This document shows, piece by piece, positions 5,635 to 31,901 of a stretch of DNA of 37,867 nt; position 1 is the first letter of the stretch, and every line of letters begins with the position of its first letter. The notes under the pieces were generated by a model. The model was not told where the DNA came from and ran no database searches. It was given only the letters and a program-made list of their open reading frames with translations. This DNA comes from a virus (Duplodnaviria > Caudoviricetes): IMG/VR virus record IMGVR_UViG_3300020044_006136, positions 1-37,867 of that record. One strand, 5' to 3'. Made by a program: the position numbers and the translations under genes.

Positions 5635-7611
5635 TTAAGATACAACAGCGAGTTTCCTTATGGCTCCAGTAGAGTCCCTGATTTCAACATATCCAGTAAT
5701 GGTTAAAGCAGTTGCTACGTGCGTTCCAAACATAATGTAAGCATTGGGGGCTACGTGAATATCTCGGTAGGCAATTCCTCCGGTCAACGCTTTAAGTTCA
5801 GCCCTACTATTGGTTGCGTCATATCTTAGTCCAACATATGTTTGGCCAGATGAAGCTCCATCAGCATCAAGAAATCCAACGCGAGTAGCGCCAGCCCCAG
5901 TGCTATAAATCGAATTAGACGCAGAAATTATCCCAACTGCCGTGTTTACATTCAAAGGGCCGGTTGAGCCAACGGCAAGGTTGCTATCTACCCAAAGATT
6001 TCCCGCGTCCTTTGTATACACCAATCCAGAGCTAAGGTTTCTGGCGACATTAACCAGACCATAAGTGTCAATAGTCATGCGCTCAACGCCGACTTTGCCA
6101 CTAACATCTGTGCTTAGATTAGTGTGCATCCTAATTTCAGATGCTGTTCCGGTTCCGGCTTGAAGTAGCAAATAACCACCCAAACCAGTGCCACCAAAGT
6201 TGTTTCCAACTAAGTCAATTTGCGCCCCATAATTTGCACCGTTGTCCGATGCTCCAGTGATGGTCAGAACCTGATTGTCTCCCGACTTCCTAATGCCAAT
6301 CGTGGAGTTAATCACCAAGGCATCTGTAAATACGGCACTAGTAATAGTTGGCGTGTTAATGCCTGATCCGATGATGGTGCCATTGCGAACGGTGACAGTG
6401 TTGAACTCCGCATCTCCGGTGCCGCGAATACGCCATCCAGATGATCCTGCCGTGAATCCAGAGGACTGAATCGTGCCAGAACCGGGAGTTAACCCATCTG
6501 AAATTGTCAGAGCTTGGCTGGTAATCGTTCCGGCGGTAATCTTTTCAGCAGCAACCTGCTGAATCAAAGCATTCTTGATATAGGTGGTTCCACCAACCAC
6601 TTGAAATGGAGCAATCTGACCAACGCCCGTCGAGTCAATGACTGCAAACTTATCCGCCTGAATTACAAACTCAGTTCCTTTTGTGACATACGCGACAGAG
6701 GCATTATATACTTCAGAGCCAGAACCTGATGGAAGCATATAGGTAAACGTAGTCGTATTTGATACCGTAATCAGATAGCTTCCGTTTGGATTTGTAGTTG
6801 CATAGCCAAGTGACGTAATGCTGATCAGGTCAGTAGAGGAATAGCCGTGCGCCGTCGATGTAACAATTGTTACCACATTTGTCGAGCGGGTTGCAGAACT
6901 TACCAGCTTTCCGGCATCTGCATTTGTCGCTCTGAATCCCATGATGCGCTGACTTGGGCCTGCACCCGTAGGCGTAACCATCAGCACATATTCATCCGCA
7001 ATGCTATCTACCCGCTTGTCGGGATATGGCACCCACGAAGACGTATCGTAGCGATAGAGGATGTTGTTGTCTGACGTGTTAATCCAAATGTCGCCATCAT
7101 TTGGTGCCGAAGGCGCAGTGCTAGACCTAGTGATCTTCTTGCCCAAATTATCCGTAATTGTGTTAGTTACCGGCCACGTTGCAACGGTAGCTGCCAGTGG
7201 ACCTACAATGCTTGAGAAGCGGCCATTCCTAGCCTCAACCTTAATCCAATAGTAACGCACTGAACCAGCTACAAGGTTGTTTCGGAAGAACGTCCGCTGC
7301 TCCTGTCCGACGTAGAACGACGGAGAAGACGGAAGTGAGCTTGTGGTGTTTTCGTAAATCCAAGTCTTTAGCGGCTGAGTATTTTGCGTCCAAGCCCAAC
7401 TCAGAATTACGGACTCCACGCCAGACGTATAGCTTAGGCTAGAGGGATCGTTAGGCGTAATGCCATCATCCGGCGCATAGCCATCAGAATTAAGGGCACC
7501 ATCCCAAACCGAATCATCAATGAGCTTGTTTAGGCGAATAGCCGTAGCCTTGCGACTAGCCCAGTCCTCATTCTTGTCCGTAAACGTGTAGCCTCGTTTG
7601 ATGATGCCCAT
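5635..7611 (-). CDS. Tail fibre/host-specificity protein with FN3-like and TipJ-like (DUF1983-like) segments
   Basis: YYWIKVEARNGRFS (FN3-like); FVIQADKFAV...PFQVVGGTTYIKNALIQ resembles the lambda gpJ C-terminal region. Confidence 0.6.
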   Translation of the reverse strand: MGIIKRGYTFTDKNEDWASRKATAIRLNKLIDDSVWDGALNSDGYAPDDGITPNDPSSLSYTSGVESVILSWAWTQNTQPLKTWIYENTTSSLPSSPSFYVGQEQRTFFRNNLVAGSVRYYWIKVEARNGRFSSIVGPLAATVATWPVTNTITDNLGKKITRSSTAPSAPNDGDIWINTSDNNILYRYDTSSWVPYPDKRVDSIADEYVLMVTPTGAGPSQRIMGFRATNADAGKLVSSATRSTNVVTIVTSTAHGYSSTDLISITSLGYATTNPNGSYLITVSNTTTFTYMLPSGSGSEVYNASVAYVTKGTEFVIQADKFAVIDSTGVGQIAPFQVVGGTTYIKNALIQQVAAEKITAGTITSQALTISDGLTPGSGTIQSSGFTAGSSGWRIRGTGDAEFNTVTVRNGTIIGSGINTPTITSAVFTDALVINSTIGIRKSGDNQVLTITGASDNGANYGAQIDLVGNNFGGTGLGGYLLLQAGTGTASEIRMHTNLSTDVSGKVGVERMTIDTYGLVNVARNLSSGLVYTKDAGNLWVDSNLAVGSTGPLNVNTAVGIISASNSIYSTGAGATRVGFLDADGASSGQTYVGLRYDATNSRAELKALTGGIAYRDIHVAPNAYIMFGTHVATALTITGYVEIRDSTGAIRKLAVVS

Positions 7612-7612
7612 G

Positions 7613-9592
7613 TTATTCAGCAGATGAGGTTGAGCCGTTCTGAACTGCGCCAGTGATTTTCACTGCCCTAATCTTGGGGCGTCCCTGCGTTGGTGCAACT
7701 GTAAACTGAGCACCATAGCCACGTTTGTTGCCAATACGGGCACGAATAGAGGCATCTTCAGCAGATGGGACAAACTTACCGAAAGCAGTTAGAACACTAC
7801 CCAGTGCTACGCTAGAATCGGGATTCTCAACCTCTACGGAAATATTAGCGTCAGATTGGAAGTTTGCTGCACTCTCAATGTGTAGCTCATACGAGTTGAA
7901 CCGCTTCCTATCCATCGTGGAATAGGTGTATTGCCGAGTGGTAAGAATGGAGTCAATGTTCAGTTGAGTGACAGTTCCGCCAGAAGACAACGAAAGGCAC
8001 ACATTATCAAAGTAGTCGTTTGCATTAACACCAGTCTCATCAATGACGTGAATGCCGCCCTCTTTGCTGACAGTGTGCAGGCGATTAACCGTTCCAGCAC
8101 CAGAGCGAACGAAACCAATGATATTCCACTGATTGCTGTTAATCACATCAAGCGACTCCCAGCCGTTGTTCAGCAGATTGAACACAATGACAGCATTGTT
8201 CACCGTAGACGCATCGAGAGGAACGGCGAGATAGTAGCGATTGTCGTGATAGACCCCAATGGAGTTGGCCGCATAGTTCTTGTTGATGCGGTCCATGATC
8301 GGGTTGATTGGCTCCGACATCGGCACAGATGCGCCGCGCAGATTGTATCTGTCCTCAAAGTTTACGCTATAAACGCCATTATCCGAGAGGAACAAGATTT
8401 GATTGCCGATCTGGACAATGGACTTACGGGCAACTGCACCAACTTCCCGCGTAACTTCTTGCACGCTGGAATTGTCCAAGTCTGCGCCAACGCCACGAAT
8501 CAAGTGAATGGAATTACGGGCAAAAACAACCAGCGCATCTTCTGCAAATGGCTGCAAGCCAACAATGAAATCGGAAGACCCAGAGGCAATCTTGAACTGG
8601 TTTTGAATCTGGTCGTAAGTGTTCTGGTCGAGGATGTCGGACGCAATTAGCTCATCACTGACATTGCGGGACGTAATCGTTGGCGTGCCAGACGTTCCAG
8701 CCATCGAGTAGTTGAACGGCATCCAAAGCCTACGCTGGTGATAGGTGGCCCAAGGCGGGGCTGGCATATGCGTGAATCCAAGCCCGATAGACTGACGCTT
8801 GCCCACGGTGATTCTTGCACCCGTAATGTCAGTTGCGTCTGCCTTGAAAGAGAAGCTGACGCCAGACGTTTTGGCATACACCCTATACTCAGTGAGCGGA
8901 TTGAGGTCGGTGTTTCCGGCATCACTAACCATTACCAAGTCGCCAACGAGAATTGCGTGTCCAGCTTCCGTCACCGTGACAACGCCATTAGAGATGGCTG
9001 TGTTGCCAGCCGTGTCGTAAACGAGTGGCTGCGTGTAGGCACCATTGCTCACCAAGGAAAACGCGGGGCTTCCCGTAAGACCACTGCCGTCCCACTGGAA
9101 AGCCACCTTGCCATCACGAAACACAAATAGGTAGTTAAACGCCTGAATGACATCACAAGTCGCGTCAACCGTCTGACCAGCCGGATAGGTGATAGTGTAA
9201 GAAACGCTCGTATTGCTAGTCTTTACAAGAACAGCCCGAGTGGCCGTTACCAGCACAATGTATTCAGTGTTGGCCGTTGACTGATCCGAGTAGAGACAAG
9301 TGCCGTAGATTGCGACCACAGCAGCATCGTTCAACGTAAGCGGAAGGACGGGCGGGGATGCGTCGTTTAGAACTAATGCCCCAGCCCCATTGGCGATGGC
9401 CGCAAACACGTTGCGATAGCCTTTACGGGTCTGCCACGAACCATCTACGTCCATGCGCCCATTCTGGCTTACGGCAACTTCCCCCGGCTTCAGTTGATCA
9501 GGACGAAGACGTTGATTGAGCACAGCAAAAGCTGTGTCTCCGTCATCAATTAGCTGGCTATCAAGCCGACCGAATGAGGCATACCTTGGCAT
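7613..9592 (-). CDS. Tail nozzle/stabilisation protein (P22 gp10 / T7 gp12-like)
   Basis: 659 aa beta-rich; GAVARKSIVQIGNQILFLSDNGVY motif; position in module. Confidence 0.65.
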   Translation of the reverse strand: MPRYASFGRLDSQLIDDGDTAFAVLNQRLRPDQLKPGEVAVSQNGRMDVDGSWQTRKGYRNVFAAIANGAGALVLNDASPPVLPLTLNDAAVVAIYGTCLYSDQSTANTEYIVLVTATRAVLVKTSNTSVSYTITYPAGQTVDATCDVIQAFNYLFVFRDGKVAFQWDGSGLTGSPAFSLVSNGAYTQPLVYDTAGNTAISNGVVTVTEAGHAILVGDLVMVSDAGNTDLNPLTEYRVYAKTSGVSFSFKADATDITGARITVGKRQSIGLGFTHMPAPPWATYHQRRLWMPFNYSMAGTSGTPTITSRNVSDELIASDILDQNTYDQIQNQFKIASGSSDFIVGLQPFAEDALVVFARNSIHLIRGVGADLDNSSVQEVTREVGAVARKSIVQIGNQILFLSDNGVYSVNFEDRYNLRGASVPMSEPINPIMDRINKNYAANSIGVYHDNRYYLAVPLDASTVNNAVIVFNLLNNGWESLDVINSNQWNIIGFVRSGAGTVNRLHTVSKEGGIHVIDETGVNANDYFDNVCLSLSSGGTVTQLNIDSILTTRQYTYSTMDRKRFNSYELHIESAANFQSDANISVEVENPDSSVALGSVLTAFGKFVPSAEDASIRARIGNKRGYGAQFTVAPTQGRPKIRAVKITGAVQNGSTSSAE

Positions 9593-25850: not shown

Positions 25851-26210
25851 ATGAAACCTACCGTTCAAATCATCAGTCCGGCTTCGCGTGGAGCCTACCA
25901 TTCCATCCGTTCTGCTGCGCTGCTCTACACGAGCACCAGCGGCACTTCCTATCTCATCGCTGACCTGTGGTGCGGAGGGAATGTCGAGGGCGAATGCTAC
26001 AGGACGCACATTTGCAAATTGGACGAGGAGGATCACAAAACCGTCATCAATCGGACGCAGTTCAAGAACGGCGAGAAGTTTGTTTTGGATTCCGTCGAGT
26101 TTGGTGACCTGATGGACACGATGCCGCTGACTTGGGTGCGCTATCGCCACGCCAATCCCACGCATAAACGCATCGTCGAGAAAGCACACAAACTCCTTTG
26201 CGTCGTTTGA
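25851..26210 (+). CDS. Early hypothetical protein
   Basis: 119 aa with an A-rich leader. Confidence 0.65.
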   Translation: MKPTVQIISPASRGAYHSIRSAALLYTSTSGTSYLIADLWCGGNVEGECYRTHICKLDEEDHKTVINRTQFKNGEKFVLDSVEFGDLMDTMPLTWVRYRHANPTHKRIVEKAHKLLCVV

Positions 26211-26289: not shown

Positions 26290-27237
26290 ATGAGCCACGA
26301 AATTGAAATTAATGACACGGTAGTTTACGGCAGCAACACACCCGCATGGCATGGGCTGGGGACGGTCTTTGCTGGCCTTTTAAGCCCTTTGCGGGTCTTC
26401 GCCGAGGGAGTGGGGCACCGGGACATCCTAGAGGTGCCAGTGATGCTGAACGGCCTCACGCTCCCCGGCCAAAAGGGGTTGGTGGGGATCACATCCAAAG
26501 GCGTACAGGTGCCGCTTGCGGTGGTGGGTGACGGCTACGGATTGCTCAAAAGCGAATCCATGTATCGCATCCTTGAGGGCGTCTACGGCGGGCAGGCTGT
26601 TGTCGACGCTGCCGGGACTCTCCGCAACGGTGCCCGCGAGTGGTGCCTCGTTAAACGGTCGGCGTGGAATGTGAGCCGGGACGATAGCGTCATGACTTAT
26701 GACCTCTGGCTCAATCATCACGACGGCTCTGGCTGCTTCTCCCTTCACCGGACCAACATCCGCGTGGTGTGCGCCAACACTTGGAAGATGGCTGTTCAGG
26801 GCGGGAACCGCGTCTTTGGCGTGCGCCATACGAAGAACGTGGCGCAAGGTGTAGAAGCTGCCTTGCAAGTGCTGGGCTACGTCGAGAGTCAGGAGCAAGC
26901 GCAGCGTGCGGCGGCGCAGCGTATGGCCACGGCTTACATGAGCCGCGATGAGGCGTCCAAAGCATTCAATATCCTTCTTGGCATCCGCGACGGGGTGGAG
27001 GCGTCCACTCGCGCAGAAAATCAGGCGAAAGAGCTTAACCGCCTCTTTATGACTGGCGCAGGCAATCACGGCCTGACCCGCTGGGACGCCTTCAATGCGA
27101 TCACCGAATACGTCGATCACGGGCGGGCTACTCGTGTTGCGGATGGTCGCGATGGTGCCGAGGTGCGGTTTGAGTCGGTCCTCATGGGGTCTGGCGATGC
27201 TCTGAAGGCCAAAGCCTTCGACCTCCTGAGCGTCTAA
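26290..27237 (+). CDS. DUF932/DUF945-family phage/plasmid protein
   Basis: PAWHGLG, NHHDGS, IRVVCANT, RHTKN, TRWDAFNAITEYVDH motifs. Confidence 0.85.
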   Translation: MSHEIEINDTVVYGSNTPAWHGLGTVFAGLLSPLRVFAEGVGHRDILEVPVMLNGLTLPGQKGLVGITSKGVQVPLAVVGDGYGLLKSESMYRILEGVYGGQAVVDAAGTLRNGAREWCLVKRSAWNVSRDDSVMTYDLWLNHHDGSGCFSLHRTNIRVVCANTWKMAVQGGNRVFGVRHTKNVAQGVEAALQVLGYVESQEQAQRAAAQRMATAYMSRDEASKAFNILLGIRDGVEASTRAENQAKELNRLFMTGAGNHGLTRWDAFNAITEYVDHGRATRVADGRDGAEVRFESVLMGSGDALKAKAFDLLSV

Positions 27238-27255
27238 GCCCCTAATTAAGCACCC

Positions 27256-27288
27256 AAAGCCCTCTCCCTCACAGGAGGGGGCTTTTTT
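27256..27288 (+). terminator. Rho-independent terminator
   Basis: AAAGCCCTCTCC-CTCACA-GGAGGGGGCTTTTTT. Confidence 0.8.
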
Positions 27289-27351
27289 GTGATTAAAATG
27301 ATCAATAGAGGTGTTTTTACTGAGCAGTAAAACGGTAATTTATGGTAAAAT

Positions 27352-27564
27352 TTACGTCACGTCATCATTCCAAATAAGGACGGTGGTGGGGTTAATTCGG
27401 ATAACCGAGAACGGTCGCCGGGGAACCTCGGGGATCACTTCCTCGGGCACCACCATCACCGGCTGGTGAATGGTTTCCTCAATTGGGTGGCCAAACAGGT
27501 CCACGGGGGGCTTGCGGGAGGCGTTTCCTTGCGTTTTAAGGCGATTTGTCGGAGCGTTTGGCAT
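27352..27564 (-). CDS. Hypothetical protein (70 aa)
   Basis: Downstream of and overlapping the PEP-CTERM mini-gene. Confidence 0.4.
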   Translation of the reverse strand: MPNAPTNRLKTQGNASRKPPVDLFGHPIEETIHQPVMVVPEEVIPEVPRRPFSVIRINPTTVLIWNDDVT

Positions 27565-27724
27565 TTGGTGGCTGACGGGTGTCCTTAAAGCGTAGAATCG
27601 CCAGCAAAATCAAACAGAGGGCGAGGAAAGTGGCGCCATAGGTAGACGGCTCAGGGACAATGGGGTGCGGCGGGTGCTTACGCGACTCGTAAATGGTCCA
27701 CGCATCGTTTTCTCGCTGGTTCAT
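27536..27724 (-). CDS. Stand-alone PEP-CTERM mini-protein (62 aa)
   Basis: IVPEPSTYGATFLALCLILLAILRFK = PEP motif, TM helix and basic residues; ATG at 27724. Confidence 0.65.
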   Translation of the reverse strand: MNQRENDAWTIYESRKHPPHPIVPEPSTYGATFLALCLILLAILRFKDTRQPPNAKRSDKSP

Positions 27725-27792
27725 TCGTGGAGCAGGGCCAGAACAAGGGGCGACGTAAACGAAAAAGTTTTTCCCACTTGCGCGACCGCGTG

Positions 27793-27801
27793 TGTTATCA
27801 T
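27793..27801 (+). promoter_or_regulatory. Extended -10 promoter for the structured region
   Basis: TGTTATCAT (TGn plus TATCAT). Confidence 0.45.
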
Positions 27802-27815
27802 TCGTTCCTGTCAGT

Positions 27816-27916
27816 TGCGGGGTCAAGCCGCACAAAAAGTCTAACTTTGGGGACGCGCTCCTCAAGAAAGGGCCGAATGTGCTACTTGACCTAGCCTTCG
27901 GCCCTTTGCTTTTTCT
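27816..27916 (+). promoter_or_regulatory. Two-hairpin leader with complementary loops; the second hairpin is terminator-like
   Basis: Loop GGTCAAG (27821-27827) is complementary to loop CTTGACC (27885-27891); 11-bp stem followed by a U-rich tract. Confidence 0.6.
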
Positions 27917-27920
27917 TGGT

Positions 27921-28260
27921 TCTCGCGGGGTTGAAGTTCATAGGAACTAAGCGTGTAACCTACGGTATTCGCGAACGGCGAACCGATATTAGGTGAAGGT
28001 GCGGTCCCCGAGGCTAACAGGCGAGAGCCTGAATCGTAGGGGTATCAAAGTGACGCGAAAGCGTGATTCACCGGCAAACTACGAGAAGCAGTTTAGGGTA
28101 GGAGGCACAAGCCGCAACCCGAGGCCGGAAAAGCGAGACACGAAGACTGCTTCATGCGCTGCTTAACAATCCCTGATGGCAGGGATTACTGCGTCCACTC
28201 GCCTACTTCATGCGACGTGCTCAACGCATCCATCCGCAATGGATCGAAAAAACTGCTTAA
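27921..28260 (+). ncRNA. Candidate large structured ncRNA
   Basis: No ORF in the track; multiple nested stems, two GNRA tetraloops, possible pseudoknots. Confidence 0.5.
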
Positions 28261-28422
28261 TCACGAAGTGAAAACCACTAGAAACTCGGGCCAATGCGGG
28301 AAAGCTAATTGCCGCAAATCGCCTTAAGGGAGTGATTTACTGATGCCCCGAAAAAAGTTGAAGAAAAGAATTGATGCCCATAGGAAATTCTGAATGATAG
28401 CGGCAGATAGGGAAAACAAAAT

Positions 28423-28674
28423 ATGAATACAACACTAGAACAAATAAACATAGTTCCGAGCTACGAAAAAATTCAGGCTATGCCCGAACATCAAGCGAAG
28501 GCAGAACTCTATCGGATGCAGAGCATCGCAGGCAGTTTGGCCTACGAACTCTATCTGATCACAAAATACGGCCCACCGCCCACTCCTAAAACAGAAGTCA
28601 TTGACGACCTGTTTAAGCGTTACGCTAAGGCGTCAGAGACAACCGGAAACGTCTATTCCCCAGAAACCAAATGA
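28423..28674 (+). CDS. Hypothetical protein
   Basis: 83 aa; first gene of a coupled operon. Confidence 0.65.
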   Translation: MNTTLEQINIVPSYEKIQAMPEHQAKAELYRMQSIAGSLAYELYLITKYGPPPTPKTEVIDDLFKRYAKASETTGNVYSPETK

Positions 28675-29273
28675 GCACCGCACAAGTAACCGAGGCGCAC
28701 CGGAAACTCGCCGACGAAATCATTTTCGCAACCGACTACTGCTCCGTGTCACCGCAGGCCGCTGCCAAACTCATCGCCGACAGCGAGGCGCGGGCGGTGT
28801 TGAAGGAAACCGGCTACCTCAAGGCGATGGTGCAGGACGGCACGAACGCGATGAAAGAGCGCGACCAGCTCCGCGCCGAGGTGGGGTGGTGGAAGAATCA
28901 GCACGCCGAGAATCAGGAGCTGGAGGACGCGATAGCGGCCAAGGTCAAAGGCACCATAGACGCCCTCCGCGCAGAGGTGGAGCGGTTGAAGGCGGACGGA
29001 GCTGCAAGTGCGTTCATTGATATGTCTTGCCGTGCATCGCACGCCGAGGCCGAACTCGCTACAGCCAAAGAACGTCTGCGCAGCGAGGCGATGGACGATT
29101 ATTCTTCAATTAAAAACTTGCAACGCGAACTCGCCGCCGAGCGGGCGCGGTTGGATTGGCTGGAAAAGCGTGCGCCGAAATGCTGGGGCCTGATTGATGC
29201 GCAGATGCTCGCGGGGAAAACGGAAACCATCCGCGCCGCCATCGACGCGGCGATGAAGGAGGCCGCGAAATGA
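28671..29273 (+). CDS. Coiled-coil modular hypothetical protein (Ead/Ea22-like)
   Basis: ERDQLRAEV and RLDWLE...IRAAIDAAM modules; ATGA overlaps. Confidence 0.65.
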   Translation: MSTAQVTEAHRKLADEIIFATDYCSVSPQAAAKLIADSEARAVLKETGYLKAMVQDGTNAMKERDQLRAEVGWWKNQHAENQELEDAIAAKVKGTIDALRAEVERLKADGAASAFIDMSCRASHAEAELATAKERLRSEAMDDYSSIKNLQRELAAERARLDWLEKRAPKCWGLIDAQMLAGKTETIRAAIDAAMKEAAK

Positions 29274-29896
29274 AACACTTAAACTTAACTCCAAAAGAAT
29301 TTTGCTCCGCAATGGACGCCTGCACCGAAGGACGTATGTTTTCCGAGAAATATAACACGATGGCAGAAGTCTGGGATGCGTGCCCGAGAGCTGATTGGCT
29401 GCTCTGGATTTTAACCGCAATCGACGCTCCGGTCAGTGACAAGACCGAGCGACTTTTTGCGGTTTGGTGCGCTCGTAACACTCCGATGCACAACGGACGC
29501 ACGACTGGCGCATTGCTCACCGATCCGCGCAGTATCTCGGCCCTTGAGGTTGCCGAGCGATTTGCACATGGGAATGCAACTACAGAGGAACTGGCTGTGG
29601 CATGGGCTGCGGCACGGGCTGCGGCACGGGCTGCGGCACGGGCTGCGGCAGCGGATGCGGCACGGGATGCGGCATGGGCTGCGGCAGGGGCTGCGGCACG
29701 GGCTGCGGCAGCGGATGCGGCACGGGATGCGGCATGGGCTGCGGCAGGGGCTGCGGCACGGTATGCGGCAGCGGATGCGGCATGGGCTGCGGCACGGTAT
29801 GCGGCATGGGCTGCGGCAGGGGATGCGGCATGGGCTGCTCAGGCAAATCAACTCCGCACAATGGTCAGTAATCCATTCGAGGAGGGCACCAAATGA
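29270..29896 (+). CDS. Ala-rich WAAARDAA-repeat protein
   Basis: [10 protein letters not shown]-terminal domain followed by 12-nt tandem repeats at about 29598-29838. Confidence 0.75.
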
Positions 29897-30249
29897 GCGC
29901 GCCCATCACCGAGGCGCACCTACGCCTAGCCAATCAACTCGTCGCATCTCCACCGTCTCCTCTCGTGATGGCAACGCTCATCGCCGACAGCGAGGCGGAG
30001 GCGGTGCAAATCGCCATGCTCCGAGAATACGGCAACCTCTCTGCAACGAACGAGTCGCTCGCTAAGGAGCGCGACCAGCTCCGCGCCGAGGTGCAAGCGC
30101 AATGCCTCCTTAACGCGAAAGGCTCGGAGCGTGAGGCTATTCTGCTTGGGAGGCTGGCGCGTGCAGAGCGGAAAATTGTGATGCTCCGCGCCGCGAACGT
30201 CGTGCGTGAGCCATCCCGGACTCACGATGTAAAACAACCAGAAACCTGA
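29893..30249 (+). CDS. Modular hypothetical protein (paralog of 28671..29273); 3' end lies in attC-like site 1
   Basis: Shares TEAH, LIADSEA and KERDQLRAEV blocks. Confidence 0.65.
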   Translation: MSAPITEAHLRLANQLVASPPSPLVMATLIADSEAEAVQIAMLREYGNLSATNESLAKERDQLRAEVQAQCLLNAKGSEREAILLGRLARAERKIVMLRAANVVREPSRTHDVKQPET

Positions 30250-30300
30250 ACGAATAAAGTGCAGCGGCCAACCGGGATTGGCACGACGCACTTGTTAGGC
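30192..30300 (-). mobile_element. attC-like recombination site 1 (109 bp)
   Basis: Plus strand CGCGAAC-6-CGTGAGC-CATCCCGG...CCGGGAT(T)G-GCAC(G)ACG-5-GTTAGGC; extrahelical G30285 and T30279. Confidence 0.75.
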
Positions 30301-30310
30301 AGCACGGTCT

Positions 30311-30541
30311 ATGAAAACAAAACCAATGATAACAGAAACAGTGACACTTTCTTTTGAAGTGAAGCTCGACTACCAAAACGATGCGGGCCGGGCGTGGCTC
30401 GTAAAATCTCTCAAGCGTGATGCTCGCGTGGATATGGGTGGCGCTGGCGTGGACACCGGGCCATACGGAATGAAATCAATCGAAGGCTCGGCGCGAGTGC
30501 TGCCTAACACCACGATGAGCCAACCCGGAGGACAATCATGA
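30311..30541 (+). CDS. Cassette 1 ORF, hypothetical
   Basis: 76 aa; reads through CCT-AAC (Pro-Asn) into attC-like site 2 and stops there. Confidence 0.6.
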   Translation: MKTKPMITETVTLSFEVKLDYQNDAGRAWLVKSLKRDARVDMGGAGVDTGPYGMKSIEGSARVLPNTTMSQPGGQS

Positions 30542-30608
30542 GCGCACCACAGACCGAAGCGCCAACGGACGGAGCAACGTCCGGATTGGCTCTGGCACCT
30601 TGTTCGGC
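30502..30608 (-). mobile_element. attC-like recombination site 2 (107 bp)
   Basis: GCCTAAC-5-GATGAGC-CAACCCGGA...TCCGGATTG-GCTCTGGC-5-GTTCGGC; arms align with site 1. Confidence 0.7.
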
Positions 30609-30849
30609 ACGACCCGATTTTAAGGCCAAACTTAGAACGCTGGCCTCTTGGTTGGCTAAAAGAGCGGAGGGAAATCACAACGAGCTGACCACACGCTCAA
30701 TGCTGCGCCGCAAGGTGGATGAGCTGATGAATGCCAAAGCGCCTAGCTGCGAATACTGCAATGGGTCCGGCGTTGTCGCTTACGAAGCCGGCGGAGAGTC
30801 GCGACTTGATGAGTGCGGGTGCCAGCAAAAGCCGAACAAAGGAATATGA
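30538..30849 (+). CDS. Cassette 2 ORF with CxxCxGxG...CxC zinc-finger-like motif
   Basis: GGAGG SD and ATG lie inside attC-like site 2; ends ...KPNKGI through GCCGAAC. Confidence 0.6.
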   Translation: MSAPQTEAPTDGATSGLALAPCSARPDFKAKLRTLASWLAKRAEGNHNELTTRSMLRRKVDELMNAKAPSCEYCNGSGVVAYEAGGESRLDECGCQQKPNKGI

Positions 30850-30940
30850 CAACTTGCACCCCATGAGCATTCCTTATTACGTTCCACCGAAAATACAAAA
30901 AAGCATTGAACAAACAAAATAAACCTGAATGATGAAAACG

Positions 30941-31075
30941 ATGACAAATGAACTAAAAGAAACGCTAGACTGCATTAAACAACTACTGGCTCGATTTCCC
31001 GCTCCCGATTGTCGTGAGCAGGAAGAGGCAGTCCAAAACGCCAAGGCAATCCTTGCGCGGGAAGGAAAGCCATGA
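30941..31075 (+). CDS. Hypothetical protein (44 aa)
   Basis: MTNELKETLDC...; ATGA overlap with the next gene. Confidence 0.5.
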   Translation: MTNELKETLDCIKQLLARFPAPDCREQEEAVQNAKAILAREGKP

Positions 31076-31362
31076 TTGATGTATCGCTAACAATGCAGTC
31101 AGTCCGGTGGATGTTTGAGAAGCATCTCAAGAACATTGACCTATCAATTCCCGCCATCCCCATAAAGGAGACCAAGGACTATCTGCACCGCAAAAAGATT
31201 ACGGATGAAACAGTTTTTGCCATCCGAGCAGACGCCCAGCGTGGCATGAAAATCCGAGAATTGGCCGAGAAATATGCGGTCAGCCAAACCGTAGCCCACA
31301 AAATCAAGCACTATCAGCACCGTTTTTCCAAGGGCAAGTTTGCCCGGAATCCACAACAATGA
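31072..31362 (+). CDS. HTH DNA-binding protein
   Basis: IRELAEKYAVSQTVAHKI. Confidence 0.65.
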   Translation: MIDVSLTMQSVRWMFEKHLKNIDLSIPAIPIKETKDYLHRKKITDETVFAIRADAQRGMKIRELAEKYAVSQTVAHKIKHYQHRFSKGKFARNPQQ

Positions 31363-31901
31363 AAACATCAGACACACTAGGCAAAATCGCACCAGCTTTG
31401 CTGGCTGCACAAAAATCAGTGGGGAACGCCAAGAAGCAGGCGACCAACCCGCACTACAAATCCAAATACGCCAACCTTGAAGCCGTCATTGAGGCTGTTA
31501 AGGACGCCCTGAACGAGAACGGTATTTCCATCATCCAGACGGTGGGTGAAGTCGGTGCCGGGACCATCTGCGTAGGCACCCGCCTGCTGCACGAGAGCGG
31601 CGAGTTTATTGAGGACATGGCCTCTGCCCCGCTGTCGAAACAAGACGCGCAAGGCGTGGGTTCTGCCGTCACCTATCTGCGCCGTTATTCTCTCGCGGCT
31701 ATCTGCTCCATCACGCAGGAGGACGACGACGGCGAATCAGCAAAAGACCCACAGATTAGCAAGGCGCAACTCGTTGCCATCCAAACCAACGCAGAGAAAA
31801 ATGCGGACATGATCAAAAAAGCCTTGGACTACTTCAAGGTTTCTGATCTAACTAAGCTCAGTCAGGGCCAAGCAAACATCATCATCAACAAACTAAACTA
31901 A
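31359..31901 (+). CDS. erf: Erf-family single-strand annealing recombinase
   Basis: NPHYKSKYANL...GSAVTYLRRYSLAAICSITQEDDDG. Confidence 0.88.
   Translation: MKTSDTLGKIAPALLAAQKSVGNAKKQATNPHYKSKYANLEAVIEAVKDALNENGISIIQTVGEVGAGTICVGTRLLHESGEFIEDMASAPLSKQDAQGVGSAVTYLRRYSLAAICSITQEDDDGESAKDPQISKAQLVAIQTNAEKNADMIKKALDYFKVSDLTKLSQGQANIIINKLN

Follow-up and report, generated by a model that had tools for sequence, protein, structure and literature searches.

A two-cassette, integrase-less attC array of apparent Opitutales type, in reversed read-through form, in the early operon of a phage

The phage genome examined here contains 2 attC sites that lie close together with no integron integrase adjoining them, the arrangement that defines a CALIN. 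Comparison with other phages and with bacterial integrons indicates that this is a real 2-cassette CALIN of the Opitutales type in a reversed, read-through form, with a mechanism that we infer from comparative breakpoints. The sites would box 2 phage genes located on the attC bottom strand, and on balance we think it probable that an integron integrase from outside the phage, most likely that of its host, cuts and rejoins the units at AA↓C (the arrow marks the crossover). That the 2 hairpins are true attC sites with an IntI-type AA↓C crossover in their history is very likely. An earlier reading of the same DNA, here called the first-pass annotation, had recognized the hairpins and the cassettes. 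The observations that go beyond it are an in-frame asparagine codon at every crossover, stop and start codons inside the sites, changes of tail among homologues, and the re-attachment of sites to other genes.

The window, by which we mean the whole stretch of DNA analyzed, is a complete phage genome of 37,867 bp with direct terminal repeats. The genes for the terminase, capsid and tail proteins are located on the minus strand, and the plus strand carries an early operon with genes for Erf, an exonuclease and DnaB. The features discussed below are as follows.

29893..30249, plus strand: upstream ORF of 118 aa; AAC at 30196 is read as Asn, and the last 16 residues and the stop (30247-30249) come from site 1
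30064..30093, plus strand: gene-junction linker with a second copy at 28854-28883 (97% alike); likely left boundary of an imported block
30192..30300 (109 bp), minus strand (attC top strand minus, bottom strand plus): attC site 1, identified by geometry, covariance model and copies; crossover AA↓C at 30197/30198, L' at 30205-30211, L'' at 30281-30288, extrahelical G30285 and T30279
30198..30507 (310 bp): cassette 1, ends complementary over 12 nt
30311..30541, plus strand (attC bottom strand): cassette 1 gene, 76 aa; AAC at 30506 in frame; site 2 provides the stop and the last 10 residues
30502..30608 (107 bp), minus strand: attC site 2; crossover at 30507/30508, loop with a ribosome-binding site (30527-30532) and the overlapping gene 1 stop and gene 2 start (30538-30541)
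30508..30836 (329 bp): cassette 2, ends complementary over 7 nt
30538..30849, plus strand: cassette 2 gene, 103 aa, with a CxxC...CxC motif; starts inside site 2, reads AAC at 30835 in frame and has its stop within the attI-like end
30831..30853, minus strand: attI-like array end with an R box, a 5-nt spacer and an L-like box (AATATGA on the plus strand) that contains the gene 2 stop
30886..30889: 4 nt common to the segment with the attI-like end and to the native backbone, where the imported block likely has its right boundary
31359..31901, plus strand: Erf-like single-strand annealing protein (phrog_2324, E 1e-45); context, outside the array

Read on the minus strand, both sites have the order of an attC top strand, that is R'', a 5-nt spacer, an 8-nt L'', the stem, a 7-nt L', a second spacer and GTT. 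The spacer between L' and GTT is 6 nt in site 1, as in the family of bacterial sites described below, and 5 nt in site 2. The first-pass annotation had reported 2 hairpins with AAC/GTT R-box cores, spacers of 5 to 6 nt and L boxes of 7 and 8 nt, 2 extrahelical bases on the plus strand of site 1, complementary unit ends (GTTAGGC at 30294 with GCCTAAC at 30502, and GTTCGGC at 30602 with GCCGAAC at 30831) and cassettes of 310 and 329 bp, and all of these coordinates were reproduced. In site 2, the first extrahelical position is occupied by T instead of G (30593), as in most of the host family, and the second bulge is absent. Site 1 has an A at position 30283, where 3 other copies have a T, resulting in an A.A mismatch in the L box, and this site seems to be partly decayed, with decay having begun.

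A covariance model was built exclusively from 29 diverse bacterial sites (of 255 found), which were aligned with a hand-given structure and which lie beside, or resemble sites of, IntI-bearing integrons; the pairs in the model covaried beyond shuffles and slides. On the minus strand, the model matched site 2 with 38.3 bits (E 7.5e-8) and site 1 with 22.1 bits (E 1e-3), the E-values being rough, and the next-best match in the genome obtained 11.2 bits. This search of both strands upheld the attC identity proposed earlier as well as the assignment of the plus strand as the attC bottom strand. A geometry scan of the genome, with thresholds chosen knowing the sites, recovered only these 2 sites, and gave 3 matches in 20 shuffled genomes. 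No Rfam family matched the sites at E<=1. The attC hairpin was not the lowest-energy fold of site 1 on either strand, and the probability of the constrained recombinogenic fold on the bottom and top strand was 0.017 and 0.0019 for site 1, 0.46 and 0.83 for site 2, and 0.83 and 0.63 as well as 0.92 and 0.92 for 2 other copies of site 1.

Both cassette genes are located on the attC bottom strand, and the usual layout, in which a top-strand gene precedes its attC, was not found in the window. This agrees with the opposite orientation noted at first, and the codon changes in gene 1 fit the plus frame; relative to the copy in another phage (L122), there were 6 synonymous and 2 non-synonymous codon changes, and 7 of 9 changes were at third positions. 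Neither of the cassette proteins had a Pfam, PHROG or usable Atlas match, and both have conserved homologues. All 3 AAC crossover triplets are in frame with the gene upstream and encode Asn. Two of the stops fall in the site 1 and site 2 loops and the third in the L-like box at the array end, and both the start and the ribosome-binding site of gene 2 lie inside site 2. When modelled as circles, both cassettes gave complete reading frames. The 3' part of the upstream ORF may be the body of an earlier cassette.

Similar arrangements were seen in other phage arrays of the Opitutales attC family. With a codon model trained on 16 window genes, 52 of the 57 scored cassettes in 15 phage arrays were reversed (including the 2 in the window), while the same model, which is noisy, placed 13 of 50 cassettes of a host array in the reversed orientation and 37 on the top strand. 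Another 9 of the 66 phage sites had no scored cassette, 4 because of misaligned ends and 5 because no array end was found. A count by longest ORF in 16 viral cassettes gave 5 reversed, 4 usual and 7 unclear. Among the ORFs that cross a junction in the 15 phage arrays, the AAC triplet was in frame in 25 of 29, and a stop in the AAC frame was present inside 60 of 62 phage sites versus 16 of 29 host sites (Fisher p 2e-6; the sites are not independent). In one copy of site 1, the TGA of the window is replaced by TAA, a change from stop to stop. Taken together, the in-frame AAC, the stops inside the sites and the stop-to-stop change suggest selection for insertions that swap the tail of a protein instead of breaking the gene.

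To the left of the cassettes, the breakpoints in other phages fall at the crossover. Site 1, loop included, was 91% to 97% identical in 3 other phage lineages (L122, L249/L250 and L251); the identity starts exactly at AAC, and the 4 upstream sequences, from the window and the other lineages, all differ and have nothing in common beyond the box. In L122, part of a 204-kb phage record (G002), the next 126 nt of gene 1 are also shared before the copy is truncated, and the first 231 nt of cassette 1 are common at 92%, starting exactly at AAC. At L122:2882-3200, only about 230 nt of cassette 1 remain before a fusion to the end of another cassette, which is followed by an attI-like end, and the R'' box of the fused unit no longer matches, which probably leaves the unit fixed. 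No full-length DNA copy of cassette 1 with both ends was recovered elsewhere. Site 2 has a 92% copy with other flanks in L123/L124 (the same as L247/L248). The body of cassette 2 was not found in the viral contigs, where only its site-2 head was recovered, at these loci.

Contigs from close strains in 4 runs (X3, X4, X5, and X6) follow the left flank at 90% to 99% identity and then continue into other attC-like arms after AAC. In X3 and X4, which are from one study, the left flank is followed by a host-type L' box, and in X5 and X6 by just 13 to 14 differing letters at the contig ends. Furthermore, an X4 contig begins to match exactly at 30502, where site 2 starts, and an X5 contig shares positions 30829-30889 with differing sequence on both sides. 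In the cassette-1 homologues P0002, P0009, and P0010, the tail changes right after the Asn encoded by AAC, with the exceptions of P0003, which ends differently by one residue, and P0004, which lacks the Asn. In the cassette-2 homologues P0005 and P0008, the core is 80% to 86% identical overall, the head and the tail both differ, and the tail change again comes right after the Asn. A comparison of related phages for different cassettes joined exactly at AA↓C had been proposed as a check in the first-pass annotation, and breaks at AA↓C were seen in the contigs that keep the flank and then take other attC arms and in the copies whose identity starts at AAC. The pattern is that of the bottom-strand IntI crossover, as it is described in the accessible portions of the literature (PMC5371416, PMC5027507).

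Pattern searches recovered few further loci. The exact-arm pattern had no match in the viral contigs, and a looser arm pattern matched 40 viral loci, of which 11 (in 9 contigs) had sites of the window's attC family by the geometry scan; the rest look like chance, and L252 and L280 were rejected as chance matches. The empty-site/right-flank pattern gave 2 chance matches only, and left-flank patterns gave first 0 matches and then 2 chance matches in the metagenomes. The 5.7-kb X5 contig was rejected as a 5-kb longer array at the window locus, as it is reversed and shares only 30829-30889. No match to the window array was obtained among 50,697 annotated phage records. Among the sequencing runs listed for the window, none was of RNA and the best share was 0.13; excision joints, cassette circles and empty sites were seen nowhere, in data in which no run spanned the cassette bodies.

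In prokaryote genomes, the site-2 arm pattern matched 119 times, and about 100 of the 116 distinct loci had Verrucomicrobiota titles (hand count), including 23 loci from a single genome, that of Horticoccus sp. 23ND18S-11. In Horticoccus, an IntI protein (371 bits, cut-off 265) is encoded beside a long array of the same attC family, and 4 of 5 further genomes with such array starts have an IntI above the cut-off. The sites belong to the attC family of the chromosomal integrons of Verrucomicrobiota (Opitutales), and the expectation that similar attC sites would be found in integrons of candidate hosts was borne out. At 7 Verrucomicrobiota loci (L125, L130, L144, L154, L170, L173, and L174), the array starts with a conserved attI-like motif after AAC. 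Relatives of the phage terminase at E<=1e-20 were present in 6 of 301 genomes of the Opitutales order versus 0 of 301 in each of 2 control orders. They point to an Opitutales-type host independently of the sites, although indirectly and at only 30% to 37% identity.

The phage itself has no tyrosine recombinase, as had been claimed; a PF00589 search of the complete genome gave no match at E<=1 (control 14 of 14), and no such recombinase was identified among the 43 ORFs scanned with PHROGs. The proposal that a helper is borrowed from the host was strengthened by the host IntI that accompanies the same attC family, but the helper need not be the host's, since one viral record encodes an IntI. The same cassettes and the same crossover could be served, with little involvement of the host, by the integrase of a co-infecting phage or prophage with its own intI behind a reversed array. 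We regard this as unlikely, although it deserves serious consideration. The viral record G1022 (L285) encodes a true IntI of 328 aa (TIGR02249, 422 bits, cut-off 265) on the strand of the genes. About 70 nt separate it from the reversed array that it follows, which contains a series of attC-like sites, and the whole looks like a complete mirror-image phage integron. The cassette proteins and sites of the window also recur in phages, and neither protein turned up in 401 host-order genomes, where there was one weak match with stops. However, none of the 9 viral records with the window's attC family (3 of them complete) encodes an IntI, and the L285 sites belong to another attC family, with no more than 23 bits in the Opitutales model and none at E<=0.01 genome-wide. 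One terminase model had no match in G1022, and a scan for relatives of the Horticoccus IntI, which reaches close relatives only, recovered a single viral locus. In addition, 5 of the 57 cassettes in phage arrays have the usual orientation, as expected if host cassettes enter. For the window's attC family, the helper that was found is that of the host, and although host and phage helpers both exist in principle, we consider a host helper clearly the more probable of the 2.

We noted several other arrays in phages. The reversed array in G1022 (L285:2150-6933) consists of small genes, including one for a DNA methyltransferase, and a serine recombinase is encoded at 7412-8977. One phage record contains 2 arrays in mirror orientation with 15 sites in total (L265 and L266; G006:C1:1-5100 and 27100-31300), and the unit beside the end of its second array may hold a host-type gene in the usual orientation, with nearly tied scores. 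A record classed as a provirus (G009, L024/L272) has a mostly reversed array in which one site closely resembles a chromosomal site of Geminisphaera (L234). Sites that resemble attC but belong to other families were located near the Erf genes of distant phages (L101:6239-9205, L105:204-261, and L117:8746-8805).

The array seems to have reached this phage lineage as a block. Among the close relatives, L048 is similar up to 30093 and L049 up to 30085, and the X4 and X5 contigs that reach site 1 begin to match at 30067. On the right, 30886-31400 is preceded by different sequence in contigs of X1, X4, and X5, and the match of the X5 contig that has the attI-like end goes no further than 30889. None of the 12 close relatives (Erf 84% to 94% identical) has an attC site at this locus, and neither of 2 whole relatives has any site. 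As the close relatives have no site at this position, and as the linker and the 4-nt overlap, which resemble microhomology joins, form the outer ends, the 2-cassette block was probably imported from another phage rather than captured at a native site. The earlier proposal that the phage captures and shuffles accessory genes is thereby amended, in that capture at a native site is improbable here.

The surroundings of the block are also variable. The early region at 28460-30896 and its counterparts in the relatives (L042-L053) are hypervariable, with small genes and common short junction linkers, which consist of a ribosome-binding site with an overlapping stop and start and a repeated coding stretch of the ERDQLRAEV type, and the relatives shuffle these small genes without attC sites. 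A 12-nt tandem repeat at 29587-29840, also present in L048, encodes an Ala-rich 4-residue repeat in the ORF at 29270-29896 (phrog_18326). A 19-codon frame at 30864-30922, which opens shortly past the attI-like end and extends over the 4-nt overlap into the tail of a native gene, is probably a chimera left by the import of the block.

The interpretation of 30831-30849 as an attI-like site received moderate support. A matrix built from 8 hand-picked ends of other phage arrays, after 2 ends that were further attC arms had been dropped, ranked the AAC at 30835 first of the 1228 AAC positions in the genome, and the rank was third when the Horticoccus attI was added and 17th with 20 unvetted host candidates added. 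The array ends of L269 and L268 have GATATGA and AATATGC at the same spacing as the L-like box. A promoter of the Pc type reading from attI would be antisense to the reversed genes. Between positions 26000 and 32000, 3 sigma-70-like sites were found versus 3.1 by chance, none of them near the array.

The sites have also changed partners. Site 1 precedes 3 different genes and site 2 precedes 2, and gene 2 follows 3 different heads. Among 9 pairs of near-identical sites (6 of them among the 4 copies of site 1), 8 differ on both sides. Such a degree of partner exchange seems to exceed what a bottom-strand crossover alone explains, so a second exchange near G↓TT would be needed. The candidates are top-strand IntI events, which according to the part of PMC5027507 available to us are favoured when the extrahelical bases are lost, and Erf-type annealing in the conserved arm.

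In a reading that gives annealing the leading role, the sites would be relics here that have spread as short homology linkers for Erf-type annealing, and IntI would no longer act. The mosaic structure of the region between about 28460 and 30896 in the 12 relatives without attC would fit, as would the position of the block ends, one at a repeated linker and one at the 4-nt overlap, the Erf gene about 500 nt downstream of the array, the mutation in site 1 and the change of partner genes on both sides in most pairs. Annealing predicts junctions inside the shared sequence, however, and the identity to the 3 lineages starts at AAC instead; moreover, R'' matches the unit's own far end at all 4 variable positions in 44 of the 57 units, which is the signature of the AA↓C crossover. 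We consider it improbable that the sites are such relics. As a contributor to the import of the block and to exchanges inside the attC arms, the Erf-like protein remains a candidate alongside the integrase activity that we favour.

It is very improbable that the strand has been misassigned, in which case the mobile unit would be a gene with its downstream site, recombined at G↓TT on the plus strand, and the cassettes would be ordinary ones. Site 2 is nearly symmetric, and the downstream partner does change near G↓TT in L249, L251 and L123 and in the heads of P0005 and P0008. The covariance model, in contrast, gave site 2 only 8 bits on the plus strand, compared with 38 on the minus strand, and found site 1 only on the minus strand. 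In IntI-bearing host integrons, this arm order is found on the strand of the genes, with 138 of 202 in the usual orientation, 14 reversed and 50 unclear (the host set unintentionally included 3 loci, L241-L243). Finally, none of the 9 pairs shares only the upstream gene with the site, and one shares the site with the downstream gene. That the hairpins arose by chance or are transcription terminators can be dismissed, as their unremarkable free folding (z-scores of -1.3 to -2.1) is outweighed by the copies in unrelated phages and the covariance-model matches, which refute chance, as well as by the complementary unit ends and the lack of a terminator-like match at either site.

In the mechanism that we favour, the plus strand, which is both the coding strand and the attC bottom strand, would fold at attC during phage replication, and IntI would excise a unit as a circle and join it to another attC or to the attI-like end. 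Insertion or excision would swap a short C-terminal tail while the early operon stays translated, because AAC is translated as Asn within each gene and a stop, often together with the next start, follows within a few codons in the next site; the promoter would be at the end far from attI. Homology at the linker (about 30064-30093) and the 4-nt microhomology at 30886-30889 would have brought the block into the lineage from another phage, and a second exchange near the other end of the sites, by top-strand IntI events or Erf-type annealing, would give them new partner genes. On a broader scale, we tentatively suggest that the phages of Verrucomicrobiota might run a mirror-image integron economy. 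The attC sites would have been remodelled into junction modules with a stop, a ribosome-binding site and a start, which are copied or re-attached onto new phage genes, as in a cassette factory, and which the IntI of a host or a phage would shuffle between unrelated phages, swapping tails with the operon intact.

Integrons are taught as bacterial devices in which the choice of strand at attC guarantees that the genes face the Pc promoter. Here, a phage operon would make mirror-image use of the same attC sites, which themselves contain coding signals and thereby offer a site-specific route to phage mosaicism. This would mean that the adaptive recombinase of the host works for its viruses. A single site, loop included, before 3 different genes and a single gene behind 3 different sites are natural substrates for the question of how cassettes are made. 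As a caution, small phage proteins whose ends vary after Pro-Asn can have arisen at cassette junctions.

The systems most similar to the window are the 17 phage CALINs, integrase-less attC clusters in lytic phages, of Qi et al. 2023 (PMC9892861), where, in the portions accessible, IntI1 was active on 5 of 6 sites and recombined 2 sites of phage PH101 with a preference for the bottom strand. Like the window, these have at least 2 attC sites and small hypothetical genes in phages without intI. If the forward primers of that study are taken as bottom strands, with which the spacer order is consistent, the bottom strands of the 2 IntI1-tested PH101 sites (KR534323.1:74253-77153, L279) are on the same strand as the annotated genes, a reversed layout like that of the window, and the CALIN of phage TJE1 has the usual orientation. 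Those accessible portions do not remark on gene direction relative to attC, nor do they describe read-through, tail swapping, attI-like ends or exchange between phages. The window sites are of the Opitutales type, unlike the sites tested there, and their function as attC is predicted from sequence comparison. No description of reversed, read-through phage cassettes was found in the literature searched, which largely left out subscription journals, and none of reversed phage cassettes beyond Qi et al. A preprint on integrons (10.1101/2022.02.06.479319) mentions, in the portion accessible, reversed intI genes but not reversed cassette genes. Cassette genesis is presented as an open matter in the accessible text of PMC8352920.

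IntI acting in trans can place cassettes at GWT triplets (attG), giving SALINs or small CALINs, according to the available part of bioRxiv 10.1101/2022.09.11.507474. The window likewise has a small integrase-less cluster away from an integron, but its end resembles phage array ends and the host attI over about 16 nt, and the block seems to have been imported rather than inserted at a native GWT. Translation is coupled by ORF-11 of attI1 and by short ORFs in attC, as far as the accessible text of a review states (PMC8876359). As in the window, the ORF-11 frame extends over the crossover point, and the incoming cassette provides its stop. ORF-11 is, however, a small leader on the top strand, whereas in the window the cassette genes themselves cross, on the bottom strand and at every junction. 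The sedentary chromosomal integrons of Horticoccus sp. 23ND18S-11 and other Opitutales share with the window the arm sequences and geometry of attC, a unit bounded by G↓TT, and an attI with a similar spacer and L-like box. The host integrons have intI and long arrays of sites of 143 to 144 bp, with genes mostly on the top strand, whereas the phage genes in the window are encoded by the bottom strand, continue across the crossover and have their signals inside the site.
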